This document shows positions 8,904 to 12,076 of a DNA stretch of 64,000 nt, in pieces. Position numbers and translations under genes: made by a program. The notes below the pieces were generated by a model that worked only from the letters and a program-made list of their open reading frames with translations, ran no database searches and was not told where the DNA came from. Location of the stretch: NCBI GenBank assembly GCA_902621165.1, contig CACNKX010000007.1, positions 1,581 through 65,580 on the forward strand. The letters run 5' to 3'. This DNA is from an uncultured Alphaproteobacteria bacterium. Its GTDB lineage: Bacteria > Pseudomonadota > Alphaproteobacteria > HIMB59 > GCA-002718135. Positions within the stretch are counted from its first letter, which is position 1, and every line of letters starts with the position of its first letter.

Positions 8904-10334
8904 CTACACGTCGTAGTATAATTTAAACTCGTGTGGATGAGGTCTAATATTAATAGGGTCAACCTCACTCTCTTTTTTATAGCTAATATAAGTTTCAATT
9001 ACATCTTTGGTGAATACGTCACCCTCTAATAAAAATTCATGATCTTTCTCAAGAGCTTCAAGAGATTCAGCTAAAGATCCAGGCGTAGATTGAATTTTAG
9101 ACAAAACTTCATCGCTAGCAGCATAGAGATTTATATCTGTTGGATCACCAGGATTAATTTTATTTTTAATTCCATCTAATCCTGCCATTAACATTGCTGA
9201 GAATGCTAAGTATGGATTTGCACTTGGATCTGGACATCTAAATTCCATTCTTTTTGCTTTAGGGCTTTGAGAATAAGCAGGAATTCTAACAGATGCAGTT
9301 CTATTTCTTTGAGAGTAAACGATGTTTACCGGAGCCTCAAAGCCTGGTACCAATCTTTTATAAGAGTTAGTAGTTGGAGCACAAAAAGCTAATAGAGCAG
9401 GTGCATGTTTAAGAATACCTCCAATATAGTTTAGAGCTAAATCACTTAGGTTAGCATAGTTACCTTCTTTATACATTAATGTGTCACCGTCTTTCCAAAC
9501 ACTTTGATGCACGTGCATTCCTGAACCATTATCTTCAAATAAAGGTTTAGGCATAAATGTAGCAGTCATTCCATGTTGTCTGGCAACATTTTTTACAACA
9601 TACTTATATTTCATCATATCATCGGCCATCTTTAACAGTGGTGAAAATTCTAAATCAATTTCACACTGTCCACCTGTTGCAACTTCATGGTGATGTGCTT
9701 CAACAGTAAGACCAATGTCTTGCATTGTCATTACCATTTCAGTTCTTACATCTTGAAGTGTATCAACTGGTGGTAAAGGAAAATAACCTTCTTTATGCCT
9801 AGGTTTATGTCCTAAGTTTGGATTTTCATCAGCGCCACTATTCCAAGTACCCTCGACAGAATCAACTTCATGAAATGCAAAGTTTGATCCAGAATCAAAC
9901 TGAACATTATTAAATACAAAAAATTCTGCTTCTGGTCCGAAAAATGCTGTATCGCCAATACCAGATGATTTCAAATATGCCTCAGCTTTTTTGGCAATAT
10001 TTCTTGGGTCACGACTATAATCAACCAAAGTTACAGGATCCTTAATGTTACAATGTAATGCTAGAGTTTTTTCTGAAAAAAATGGATCAATGTATGCAGT
10101 CGTTGCATCTGGCAAAACAATCATATCACTGTCTTGAATTTCTTGGAAACCTCTTACTGAAGATCCATCAAAACCAAGTCCATCAGAAAATATATCTTCG
10201 TCTAAAAATTTAATTGGTATTGTAAAATGTTGAGTTGTTCCTGGTATATCAGTAAAGCGCATATCAACCATTTTAATGTCCATATCTTTAATTTCAGACA
10301 TTAAATCTTTTGGAGTCGAGCTTTTTAATTTCAT
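8904..10334 (-). CDS. glnA: Glutamine synthetase type I (GSI-beta)
   Basis: [62 protein letters not shown] Shine-Dalgarno upstream. Confidence 0.97.
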
Positions 10335-10351
10335 ATCTATCTCCTTACTTC

Positions 10352-10381
10352 AACAAAAGGGTATGCTATCCAGCGTTACCC
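10352..10381 (-). terminator. Candidate attenuator hairpin in the glnA leader (riboswitch expression platform)
   Basis: Minus strand GGGTA-AC-GCT-GGAT-AGC-A-TACCC followed by TTTTGTT, between aptamer 2 and the glnA SD. Confidence 0.55.
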
Positions 10382-10421
10382 GGTTAAATCATGCTCTAGT
10401 TATGAAATCTGCTTTTGATGC

Positions 10422-10475
10422 GCGTTCCTTCAGCTTTTGGCTTACTTCCGACCTATAATAATAGGTTGAACGATT
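10422..10475 (-). ncRNA. Glutamine-I riboswitch aptamer (glnA RNA motif), copy 2 (proximal)
   Basis: AATCGTTCA-ACCTAT-TATT-ATAGGT-CGGAAGTA-AGC-CAAAA-GCT-GAAGGAACGC: P1 CGTTC/GAACG, P2, GGAAGTA/GAA E-loop, P3. Confidence 0.9.
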
Positions 10476-10489
10476 TATAACTTTTGCAT

Positions 10490-10540
10490 GCGTTCCTTCG
10501 GCACAATGCCTACTTCCGACTCTAAAAGAGTTGAACGATT
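10490..10540 (-). ncRNA. Glutamine-I riboswitch aptamer (glnA RNA motif), copy 1 (distal)
   Basis: AATCGTTCA-ACTCT-TTT-AGAGT-CGGAAGTA-GGCA-TTG-TGCC-GAAGGAACGC; same core as copy 2 with compensatory stem changes. Confidence 0.9.
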
Positions 10541-10580
10541 GTAGTTTAATTACTAGGTTTTATATAAAAGTAAAGAAAAA

Positions 10581-10922
10581 TTAGACAGCATCACTGTCTT
10601 TTTCACCAGTCCTTATTCTAATTACCTGCTCAATATTCGATACAAAAATCTTACCATCTCCGATTTTTCCTGAATAAGCGCTAGTTTTTATTGATTCAAT
10701 AACATCATTTACTTGACTGTCATCGACGATAACTTCAAGTTTCATTTTTGCTAAAAATTCATCATCATACCCATCATTAGGATCAATTCCACCAGTTGAT
10801 CCTCTTTGTCTACCGAAACCTTTTACATCTACTAATGTCATTCCGGATATTCCAAGTTCATGTAAAGCTTCTTTAACTTGAGAAAGTTTAAATGGTTTAA
10901 TGATTGCTTCTATTTTTTTCAT
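10581..10922 (-). CDS. glnB: Nitrogen regulatory protein P-II with atypical T-loop
   Basis: MKKIEAIIKPFKL, GFGRQ, SGKIGDGKIF, RIRTGE; lies upstream of glnA. Confidence 0.9.
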   Translation of the reverse strand: MKKIEAIIKPFKLSQVKEALHELGISGMTLVDVKGFGRQRGSTGGIDPNDGYDDEFLAKMKLEVIVDDSQVNDVIESIKTSAYSGKIGDGKIFVSNIEQVIRIRTGEKDSDAV

Positions 10923-12076
10923 ATCGTAGATAACCTATTAATTGCTTCTTTAATGTTTTCTAGAGAATTAGCAAAACTTATTCTTACAAATTCTCCAGCA
11001 TTATCTCCAAAGCTAGAGCCAGGAACTAATGCAACACCTTTCTCTTCAAGTGCGATTTCTGAAAATTTATTTCCGCTCAATCCAGTTTTTGAAATATTGG
11101 GAAATGCATAAAAAGCACCACCTGGTTCAAAACAAGAAATTTTTTCTAATTTATTCAATTCATTAAAAACGTACTCTTTTCTTTTTTGAAATTCACTAAC
11201 AATTTTTGTTATTTCTTTCTGAGAACCTTTTATTGCTTCTAACCCTGCATATTGCGAAATTGAGGTAGCACAGGAATTGTAATTGACACATATTTTATTA
11301 GCATGTTCAATTAAATTTTCTGGCCATATACTCCAGCCTAATCTCCATCCAGTCATACAATATGTTTTGCTCCATCCTTCAAGAACTATTAATCTATCTT
11401 TTATACTTTCGTATTCTAATAATGATGGCATTTGCTCATTATTAAAAATAATATTACTATAAATTTCATCACTTAAAATGGATACGTTTGGGTACTGTTC
11501 TAGTAAATTAACAAGATCAGTAATTTTTTTCTTATTCATAAATGATCCTGTTGGATTGTTTGGATTATTTATTATTATCAAACTTGTTTTATCAGAAATT
11601 AATTCTTTTAATTGTTCAGTATTAATTTCGAAATTATCTTTTTCTGAAAGTTTTAATGGTACAGCTTTTGCACCGCTATATTTAATCATAGATCTATAAA
11701 TAGGAAAACCAGGATCGGGAAAAATAATTTCTCTGTCTTCACTTCCTAATAATAATGCTGAAATAAAAATTACTGGCTTACCTCCCGGAGTTATTAAAAT
11801 ATTATCTGATTTAATATTTGTTTTGTATTTTTTAAGTACCAATTCTGAAATTGCTTCTCGTAATTCAGGGATCCCATTTGATGGAGTATAGCCATGGTGA
11901 CCATCTTTAATTGCTTTAATGGCAGCTTCCTGAATATTGATTGGTGTAGGAAAATCGGGTTGTCCTATTCCTAAATTAATAATATCTTTACCTTTAGCAG
12001 CAAGATTATTAGCTTTAGCAAGAATAGAGAATGCTGTTTCTGTTTCTAAATTAAATATTCTTTTTGAAACTTCCAT
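10919..12076 (-). CDS. PLP-dependent aminotransferase class I/II (AspC/AatA-like)
   Basis: LGIGQPDF, NNPNNPTG, SDEIY, SKTYCMTGWRLG (PLP lysine), GAFYAF, VRISFA. Confidence 0.92.
   Translation of the reverse strand: MEVSKRIFNLETETAFSILAKANNLAAKGKDIINLGIGQPDFPTPINIQEAAIKAIKDGHHGYTPSNGIPELREAISELVLKKYKTNIKSDNILITPGGKPVIFISALLLGSEDREIIFPDPGFPIYRSMIKYSGAKAVPLKLSEKDNFEINTEQLKELISDKTSLIIINNPNNPTGSFMNKKKITDLVNLLEQYPNVSILSDEIYSNIIFNNEQMPSLLEYESIKDRLIVLEGWSKTYCMTGWRLGWSIWPENLIEHANKICVNYNSCATSISQYAGLEAIKGSQKEITKIVSEFQKRKEYVFNELNKLEKISCFEPGGAFYAFPNISKTGLSGNKFSEIALEEKGVALVPGSSFGDNAGEFVRISFANSLENIKEAINRLSTI

Follow-up and report, generated by a model that had tools for sequence, protein, structure and literature searches.

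The glnA RNA motif, a riboswitch class for glutamine, has been described upstream of genes for PII signal proteins, glutamine synthetase (GS), GOGAT and ammonium importers (amt) in cyanobacteria and marine metagenomes, in some cases in tandem, an arrangement associated with a more digital kind of response (Weinberg et al. 2010; PMC2864571). In cyanobacteria, the motif acts as an ON switch on gifB, as shown by Klahn et al. (2018; PMC6212724), who also place the riboswitch upstream of glnA in marine metagenomes and call negative regulation there 'reasonable', its effect and host taxon not being known at the time. Matches to the corresponding covariance model, RF01739, are listed in a 2025 paper (PMC12379486) for SAR86 and, next to a porin gene, for a Pelagibacter metagenome-assembled genome (MAG). 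Here we describe a tandem glutamine riboswitch between the PII and glnA genes of an uncultured alphaproteobacterium (GTDB order HIMB59, family GCA-002718135), in a 64,000-nucleotide stretch of contig CACNKX010000007.1 that we call the window. With a probability of roughly 0.7, we consider that such paired riboswitches stand in for GlnD, GlnE and GlnK in this family, alongside a pared-down PII, and that they form an OFF switch on glnA.

On the protein side, Smith et al. (2013; PMC3870248) describe Pelagibacter as lacking PII, GlnD and NtrBC and as retaining NtrYX, and the strain HIMB59 as having glnB-glnA, glnD and glnK-amtB. The SAR11 subclades IIIa/LD12 are reported with glnB and without glnD (PMC10030771). 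By a term search of the AEGEAN-169 study of Getz et al. (2023; PMC10308909), 'glutamine' and 'PII' do not occur and 'nitrogen' occurs three times. The sister family of the window's family, examined below, matches the HIMB59 gene set, and the order is probably HIMB59/AEGEAN-169, with the window's family sister to the HIMB59 family. The literature searched, with subscription journals and supplements outside view, held no paper linking the riboswitch to this clade or to a loss of GlnD, GlnE or GlnK. What was known already, from marine metagenomes without a host, is the riboswitch class and its occurrence in tandem before glnA and amt genes; the host lineage, and the exchange against GlnD, GlnE and GlnK, appear unreported. 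Ames and Breaker reportedly also dealt with the glnA RNA motif in marine metagenomes in 2011.

Comparison with described systems

Tandem aptamers that act cooperatively are familiar from the glycine riboswitch. The leader RNA described here is likewise built from two same-ligand aptamers before a single expression platform, but each half of the helix thought to hold that platform adjoins a different aptamer, and cooperativity is in this case a prediction only. With cyanobacterial glutamine sensing (Klahn et al. 2018, PMC6212724; RF01739/RF01704), the system shares its aptamer family and the lack of GlnD, and probably also its division of labor: an RNA would read glutamine, an unmodified PII would read 2-oxoglutarate and energy state, and GS would not be adenylylated. 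Unlike in cyanobacteria, the switch sits on glnA and amt mRNAs and not on the gene for an inactivating factor, so it should work in the opposite direction; its aptamers are always paired and have a linker and a box in common, and its host is a heterotrophic alphaproteobacterium. The marine glnA motif (PMC2864571) is also found in tandem and upstream of GS, amt and PII genes, and the window very likely belongs to one such organism. Beyond those reports, which gave no host, the present analysis assigns the motif to a family, outlines its regulon and composite architecture, and adds that the protein cascade is missing.

The canonical proteobacterial cascade is still recognizable in the glnB-glnA order at the ancestral locus, in a GS of type I and in a PII whose ligand pocket is intact. 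However, GlnD, GlnE, GlnK, NtrBC and sigma-54 were not found in the window's genome, and both the PII T-loop and a GS loop have left the canonical motifs. A closer parallel in lifestyle is 'Candidatus Pelagibacter ubique' (PMC3870248), another streamlined marine alphaproteobacterium that lacks glnD and ntrBC, keeps NtrY/NtrX and has amt leaders suspected of being riboswitch-like. Pelagibacter, in contrast, has no PII at all and its amt leaders are not reported there as glutamine riboswitches, whereas here one PII is present and the RNA class is identified.

The locus and its tandem aptamers

Gene models and RF01739 scores place all elements of the locus where the first-pass annotation, made by a model from the letters alone, had put them. 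All three genes and the elements between them lie on the minus strand. A class I/II (aspartate-type) aminotransferase of 385 residues (10919..12076; PF00155, 236 bits) opens an operon whose second and last gene encodes PII (10581..10922; 113 residues; PF00543, 113 bits against a cut-off of 25), the aminotransferase stop codon overlapping the PII start by four nucleotides (ATGA). The spacer of 246 nucleotides that follows carries both aptamers and leads to glnA (8904..10334; 476 residues), which scores 665 bits with TIGR00653 against a cut-off of 429 and contains both GS domains, PF03951 and PF00120, as expected of a type I GS. A strong intrinsic terminator with a 16-pair stem and a T run closes the gene on its 3' side (8853..8888).

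The claim of a tandem glutamine riboswitch holds at the level of sequence and structure, with scores far above chance. Aptamer 1 (10487..10539) scores 64.3 bits and aptamer 2 (10419..10474) 65.2 bits against a gathering score of 35, and each covers model positions 1-53 of 53 (E ~1e-12). On the strength of this covariance-model match, the aptamers are predicted to bind glutamine and control the genes behind them. The three-stem architecture is kept by compensatory changes, judging by 36 tandem units: two-sided changes occur in 131 cells compared with 43.7 +/- 8.2 in shuffles, and the stems are paired in 92% of cells compared with 26-38% when the partners are slid. Of the three stems, P2 and P3 show compensatory changes in both aptamers, and P1 is invariant.

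Neither the gene order nor the aptamer pair is peculiar to this contig. The order aminotransferase-PII-glnA is kept in 26 of 28 same-genus loci, the exceptions being one cut by a contig end and one with a truncated PII and no glnA; this refutes the objection, raised with the original proposal, that the contig might be chimeric here. All 28 PII-glnA spacers extracted, the window's included, contain two aptamers. Six further loci from the family's other genera retain the aminotransferase (6/6), both aptamers (6/6) and glnA (5/6, the sixth being cut by a contig end).

Distribution of the riboswitch and of the protein cascade

The window's own assembly (1.42 Mb in 20 contigs, 83% complete) contains six RF01739 aptamers arranged as three pairs: one pair precedes glnA, and each of two adjacent amt genes, neither with a glnK beside it, has a pair of its own. 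Searches of this genome with models for GlnD (TIGR01693), the GlnE domain and the sigma-54 DNA-binding domain gave no hits, and a single PII was found, with no second copy such as glnK. The sole NtrC-like gene fits best as NtrX (402 bits, under the model cut-off of 600) and lies in the order ispDF-sensor kinase-ntrX-trkA; ntrBC was seen neither beside it nor elsewhere in the genome, ntrB having had no model search of its own. A canonical Ntr regulon, with rpoN and an ntrB-ntrC pair, is thus not in evidence, and the prediction that glnD, glnE, rpoN, ntrBC and a second PII would be missing from this genome was borne out. The earlier notion of a minimal RNA-based circuit needs trimming: an RNA sensor without GlnD, GlnE and GlnK is what the genome offers, but NtrYX and PII are kept and the circuit is not purely RNA.

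Some neighboring observations concern the same genome. The sensor kinase next to ntrX (G000:C5:7247-10715; L052 2247-5715) has 714 residues and is NtrY-like by position only, no NtrY model having matched; the arrangement between ispDF and trkA is that described for Pelagibacter. Two further GS-family genes, at G000:C4:72646-73641 and G000:C2:179849-180835 (open frames of 506 and 460 residues), have no riboswitch and may be type III or GlnT-like paralogs known from Pelagibacter.

A further comparison is between sister families. A draw of 150 genomes from the order comprised 79 from the window's family (eight genera) and 71 from its sister family. glnD was found in none of the 79 compared with 60 of the 71, and RF01739 in 77 of the 79 (seven of the eight genera) compared with none of the 71. 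In a smaller draw, GlnE was found in 0/36 genomes of the window's family and 22/24 of the sister family, and PII in 28/36, as a single copy, and 24/24, mostly as two copies. The sister family has the canonical glnB-glnA-glnE and glnK-amtB arrangements. Eight aptamers and neither glnD nor GlnE were found in another genome of the genus, 96% complete and assembled in 10 contigs. Across the class, with one genome for each of 150 other families, RF01739 appeared in one. glnD and RF01739 therefore split cleanly by family, and the traits are co-distributed, not independent. These counts support, as a genomic argument, the proposal that an RNA sensor occupies the place of a protein cascade, and more specifically that the riboswitch replaced GlnD, GlnE and GlnK.

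Gaps in the assemblies offer a trivial explanation for such a pattern: glnD, glnE and glnK might exist and have gone unassembled or unbinned, given that the window's genome is 83% complete and most relatives 50-90%. We regard this as extremely improbable. The absence of glnD extends over all 79 genomes, including those that are 90-96% complete and one of 10 contigs, and the same search recovers glnD in 60 of 71 equally fragmentary sister-family genomes. In addition, the positions at which the sister family has glnE and glnK are assembled in the window's genome and occupied otherwise.

A composite leader RNA

The aptamers are parts of a larger conserved unit. In the 36 tandem units, which precede glnA, amt and a third kind of target encoding an ATP-grasp protein, the order is aptamer 1, linker, aptamer 2, 15-25 variable nucleotides, box, hairpin, Shine-Dalgarno (SD) sequence and AUG. 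In the window, the near-invariant linker occupies 10475..10486 and reads, together with the CA of the aptamer 1 tail, CAUGC-AAAA-GUUAU-AA; its general form is CAUGC-A(2-4)-GUUAU, the same linker appearing in amt and ATP-grasp leaders with two to four A. The box GAUUUCAUAACUAGAGCAUGA (10389..10409), a candidate expression platform, follows the consensus UUUC(C)AUA(A/G)C-UA(A/G)(A)-GCAUGA. Both linker and box hardly vary among the leaders of glnA, amt and ATP-grasp genes. The hairpin between box and SD (10351..10381; GGGUA...UACCC, then UUUUGUUG) is present in every glnA leader, its sequence varying among relatives while the hairpin itself is constant. The glnA ribosome-binding site (10327..10346) consists of the SD sequence AAGGAG (10346..10341) and the AUG (10334..10332).

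Two alternative pairings of the box suggest how the unit might work. Its 3' half can pair with the linker, enclosing aptamer 2, and does so in the minimum-energy fold of both amt leaders. In the glnA leader, its 5' half GAUUUCAUA can pair with the start-codon region UAUGAAAUU (10335..10327); the AUA of the box takes part in both pairings. The box-start pairing reaches -10.0 kcal/mol, compared with -3.7 +/- 1.5 for shuffled boxes, and only one of 2000 shuffles was as good. This duplex ranks first in 20 of the 21 distinct glnA leaders of the genus and in three of five from other genera, and the minimum-energy folds of three divergent leaders contain it.

Several further features of these leaders deserve mention in their own right. 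The AUG of the box opens a frame of two to five codons in most leaders (10383-10391 in the window, and equivalents), which has no SD sequence and ends within the 5' arm of the hairpin or shortly ahead of it; it may be a chance product of AT-rich sequence or a ribosome-coupled attenuator. A fourth tandem-riboswitch target, besides glnA and the two amt genes, is a 468-residue circularly permuted ATP-grasp protein (PF14403, 512-514 bits) in 13 same-genus genomes (L134-L146). A homolog with a single aptamer occurs in an unrelated small genome from another family of the class (L133:56-1551, G068). This riboswitch linkage points to a nitrogen-linked role for an uncharacterised family of ATP-grasp ligases; no copy turned up in the assembly from which the window comes, which is 83% complete. 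A third, different Amt paralog (MTLEELNVF...) in L150-L152 (G035, G011, G001) has a single aptamer and neither linker nor box.

The leader also appears to have its own promoter. At the PII stop codon, a hairpin of 7 bp with a T-rich run behind it (10583..10599) is weakly terminator-like and kept in relatives. Between this hairpin and aptamer 1 lies a candidate sigma-70 promoter (10547..10574), with a -35 element TTTACT (10574..10569), a spacer of 16 nucleotides and a -10 element TAATTA (10552..10547); alignments across the family conserve the form TTTAC(T/A) - 16-17 nt - TAA(T/A)(T/A)(A/G). A promoter scan did not report it. In four seawater RNA libraries, from four studies, single contigs link the 5' end of glnA to both aptamers, and others bridge PII and the leader. 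One contig of 440 nucleotides spans 10102-10540 with one mismatch and ends at 10540, seven nucleotides past the proposed -10 element, a weak hint of a transcription start, as contigs prove neither starts nor levels. Summed contig depth is ~10-100x higher over glnA and its leader than over the PII and aminotransferase genes, but the runs were found via glnA and these depths are unfit for ranking genes; stretches without contig coverage carry no meaning.

A proposed OFF switch and its alternatives

In the circuit that we propose, glutamine would be read directly by the mRNAs of the ammonium-assimilation genes, while 2-oxoglutarate and ATP/ADP would still be read by a single unmodified PII with its pocket intact. 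The PII T-loop would no longer be bound to fit GlnD, GlnE, NtrB or AmtB, GS would no longer be adenylylated, and NtrY/NtrX would be the last transcriptional nitrogen regulator. From its own promoter just 3' of the PII gene, glnA would be transcribed with the composite leader. At high glutamine, both aptamers would fold and free the downstream box from its pairing with the linker; the freed box could then pair with the glnA start-codon region and block translation, which is the OFF state. At low glutamine, the linker would keep the box and the start site would stay open. A requirement for two occupied aptamers would sharpen the response.

It is conceivable that the logic extends further, although we hold this to be doubtful. 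The composite RNA of ~150 nucleotides would then be an AND gate on every ammonium-assimilation operon, each aptamer releasing one half of the helix that holds the box off the ribosome-binding site, and the acidic T-loop of PII would have been re-aimed at the aminotransferase with which PII is co-translated, or at GS, gating the carbon-skeleton side of assimilation by 2-oxoglutarate.

The sign of the switch could also be the reverse, with glutamine raising expression as in cyanobacterial gifB, or control could be transcriptional, the hairpin and a U-run acting as a terminator. The only tested glutamine riboswitch does activate translation (Klahn et al. 2018, PMC6212724), but inducing GS and ammonium importers at high glutamine would be physiologically senseless. 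A hairpin lies 5' of the SD sequence in every glnA leader, and a U-run follows in several (UUUUGUUG in the window, UUGUUUUUG in L036, UCUAUUUUUUU in L021); the hairpins of amt leaders are mostly without one, and because the hairpin varies while the box does not, a box-hairpin antiterminator is improbable. The short frame that opens at the AUG of the box and ends at the hairpin's 5' arm would fit ribosome-dependent attenuation, were it not for the missing SD sequence. Taken together, we consider an ON or terminator mechanism distinctly unlikely.

The OFF switch and the replacement of the protein cascade that we prefer nonetheless have a number of points against them. Most genomes compared are incomplete MAGs (50-96% complete). 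No match over the Sigma54_DBD cut-off was found in 61 genomes of both families, and the loss of sigma-54 therefore predates the family split. The suggestion that the riboswitch replaced NtrBC and sigma-54 fails for this reason, and part of the canonical system seems to have gone before the riboswitch appeared. The family split is, moreover, a single evolutionary event, and co-occurrence among kin cannot prove that the riboswitch caused or compensated the losses. As for mechanism, we infer the two-aptamer logic, and we infer the OFF direction from physiological considerations, while the one glutamine riboswitch characterised so far works as an ON switch. Covariation is absent from the linker-box helix, five of its pairs being fixed and the other five changing only from U-A to U-G, and the helix has the standing of a hypothesis. 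A duplex elsewhere is better in 3 of 26 glnA leaders, and the glnA start region (AUG AAA U) is also under coding constraint. In the amt leaders, an anti-SD pairing was considered and set aside, as it was no better than with shuffled boxes (323 and 237 of 2000); the anti-ribosome-binding-site role is therefore supported for glnA only.

A pared-down PII protein

The protein encoded upstream of the riboswitch is a PII by its PF00543 score and by its pocket. The residues G37, R38, Q39, G41, K59, G85-K91, R102 and R104 are invariant in 32 aligned PIIs, and we take them to form the ATP/ADP and 2-oxoglutarate pocket. It is not a GlnD-modified GlnB or GlnK by any of three measures: its equivalog scores (GlnB 128 bits against a cut-off of 202; GlnK 127 bits against 181, NCBIfam), its T-loop, and the absence of glnD from 79 family genomes. 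The T-loop reads GRQRGSTGGIDPNDGYDDEF where the sister-family GlnB has GRQKGHTELYRGAEYVVDF, and GSTGGIDPNDGY where the canonical form is GHTELYRGAEY. Its consensus, GRQRGSTGG[IM]D-xxxx-YDDEF, is one residue longer than in the sister-family GlnB and has lost basic residues. The apex, residues 48-51, is hypervariable and differs among the 28 same-genus PIIs, even between species whose PII proteins are ~95% identical, and the T-loop of the family's other genera diverges more, including one Tyr-to-Phe change. The annotation of this PII as atypical is borne out.

How widely such T-loops occur can be judged in part. Among 401 genomes from 208 families, true matches to the T-loop DNA pattern were confined to this genus; three matches outside it (in G226 and G186) were out of frame and dismissed as chance. 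The PII variant is abundant in ocean metagenomes, in a homolog search that listed variants of >=83% identity only, with remoter T-loop carriers out of view. A search for related loci by PII returned one close relative and 79 ordinary GlnB proteins at 55-62% identity, generic PII words having dominated it.

Of 10 genomes from other genera in the family, four gave no PII, and three of these four retain the riboswitch. The four, searched with a window-type query, are G459, G469 and G529 (85-93% complete) and G562 (67% complete); G459 is also without riboswitch and glnD. Within the family, nitrogen control appears to have been reduced further, step by step. Variability of the T-loop, together with these losses, fits a protein that may have been released from its old partners.

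Alternatively, PII may still be the hub of the circuit, its T-loop having changed to suit a new partner (the co-translated aminotransferase, GS itself or a new modifying enzyme), with the riboswitches as an added layer. The aminotransferase and PII genes overlap or abut at every locus seen, and the T-loop keeps GRQRG, a Tyr or Phe and the acidic DDEF beside the invariant pocket residues; the variant is also abundant in ocean metagenomes. Judging by the titles of structure entries, solved archaeal GS-GlnK complexes set a precedent for direct contact between PII and GS. A binding interface in which four apex residues differ between near-identical species would nevertheless be unusual, and no kinase, uridylyltransferase or other modifier was identified. 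The three genomes that keep the riboswitch with no PII found, and G459, which has neither, also sit poorly with a PII hub. All told, we think it rather unlikely that PII has remained the center of control.

Glutamine synthetase and the ancestry of the locus

In GS, one loop fits the loss of the protein cascade. The window's GS carries DINLYAAS in place of DK(D/N)LYDLP, the Tyr being retained and its context gone. All 31 family rows have DIN[LI]Y[AE]A[SP]; the two rows from the sister family, like 49 of 49 from other alphaproteobacteria, have DK[DN]LYxLP. This loop is presumably the GlnE adenylylation site. Its degeneration in 31/31 rows matches the loss of glnE, and with GlnE in 0/36 genomes the enzyme does not qualify as a GlnE-regulated GS.

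A closed sister-family genome shows the presumed starting point: clpX-clpP-tig, then divergently glnB, a 44-nt spacer and glnA, with a convergent glnE, and glnK-amtB elsewhere. The window has tig-clpP-clpX, two tRNA genes, and divergently the aminotransferase, PII, the aptamers and glnA. As the tig-clpP-clpX neighborhood is the same in both families, PII and glnA hold their ancestral position. The aminotransferase does not: it had been described as standing at a native position, but the sister family has no ortholog, its best match being 36% identical, which is paralog level. The gene is, by this comparison, a family-specific addition to the locus, and it adjoins PII in 26 of 28 same-genus loci and in all six loci from the family's other genera. 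The tRNA genes (12130-12203 and 12273-12354) lie between the aminotransferase and tig, where the locus departs from that of the sister family; tRNA genes are common insertion points, and these may bear on the arrival of the aminotransferase.

The GS had also been called foreign-looking, and part of that impression stands. The G+C content of glnA is 0.34-0.37, compared with 0.21-0.32 in neighboring genes, and the adenylylation loop is altered; a donor, however, cannot be named. Within the genus, the GS protein is 98-100% identical (100% in many species) while third codon positions are ~85% identical, like those of neighboring genes, which indicates very strong purifying selection and not recent transfer; the raised G+C content is attributable to that selection. 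Its identity to the GS of the sister family is 59%; ordinary alphaproteobacterial GlnA proteins reach 52-57%, and some copies of Desulfobacterota type or on plasmids reach 62-65%. The matches of a separate GS homolog search carry inconsistent MAG labels and no gene context, and we do not build on them. A quick tree of 63 GS rows puts the GS of both families outside the main alphaproteobacterial clade and the window's type as sister to two Desulfobacterota-type GS (SH-aLRT 92). This tree is the only basis for the GS placement, and neither it nor the PII tree includes cyanobacterial or actinobacterial sequences. In the PII tree, the family's stem is long (1.1 changes per site) and its placement has a support of 0.

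At least three GS allele types exist in the genus, at ~100%, 83% and 77% identity (L021 = G013, L036 and L041, compared with window positions 8904-10334). G013 combines a PII that is 96% identical with a GS that is 77% identical; recombination therefore swaps glnA downstream of the riboswitch.

These data bear on whether the whole block from aminotransferase to glnA, riboswitch included, arrived from another lineage and replaced a native glnB-glnA-glnE in situ. Such a replacement concerns origin only, explaining the odd T-loop and GS by foreign ancestry, and is compatible with the function proposed above. The aminotransferase, without a sister-family ortholog (36% at best), would be accounted for, as would a GS that groups with the two Desulfobacterota-type sequences (SH-aLRT 92) and not with the sister family's (59% identical). 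Outside the family, moreover, the riboswitch class is known mainly from cyanobacteria. The window's PII has its top eight solved-structure matches at 125-120 bits, above proteobacterial GlnB at 119-117 bits; all eight are, as we understand them, cyanobacterial PII. The sister-family GlnB prefers proteobacterial structures, by 176 to 141 bits. Exchange at the locus does occur, in at least one same-genus genome with a 77% GS allele beside a 96%-identical PII. Yet no donor was found, the nearest named GS being 59-65% identical, and the GS of the sister family likewise lies outside the main clade of alphaproteobacterial sequences and ranks the same against solved structures. The long, unsupported PII stem (1.1 changes per site, support 0), the lack of cyanobacterial and actinobacterial sequences in the trees and the reliance on a quick GS tree take further weight from a foreign origin. 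Import of the cassette is a possibility to be kept in mind, if one that we would on balance not back.

Implications

The present analysis names a host for the glnA-linked glutamine riboswitches of ocean metagenomes. The two sister families, compared at the same locus, provide a natural before-and-after pair for the exchange of a protein cascade for RNA during genome streamlining, and the same pair bears on the role of a PII that has lost its classical partners. Nitrogen is often limiting in surface oceans, where the clade is abundant; its regulation bears on models of marine nitrogen uptake. A compact glutamine-responsive leader could, in addition, serve as a sensor part. If the extended two-signal circuit considered above, doubtful as it is, were correct, an RNA sensor would have taken over from a multi-enzyme covalent-modification cascade within the Proteobacteria, with almost no dedicated proteins.

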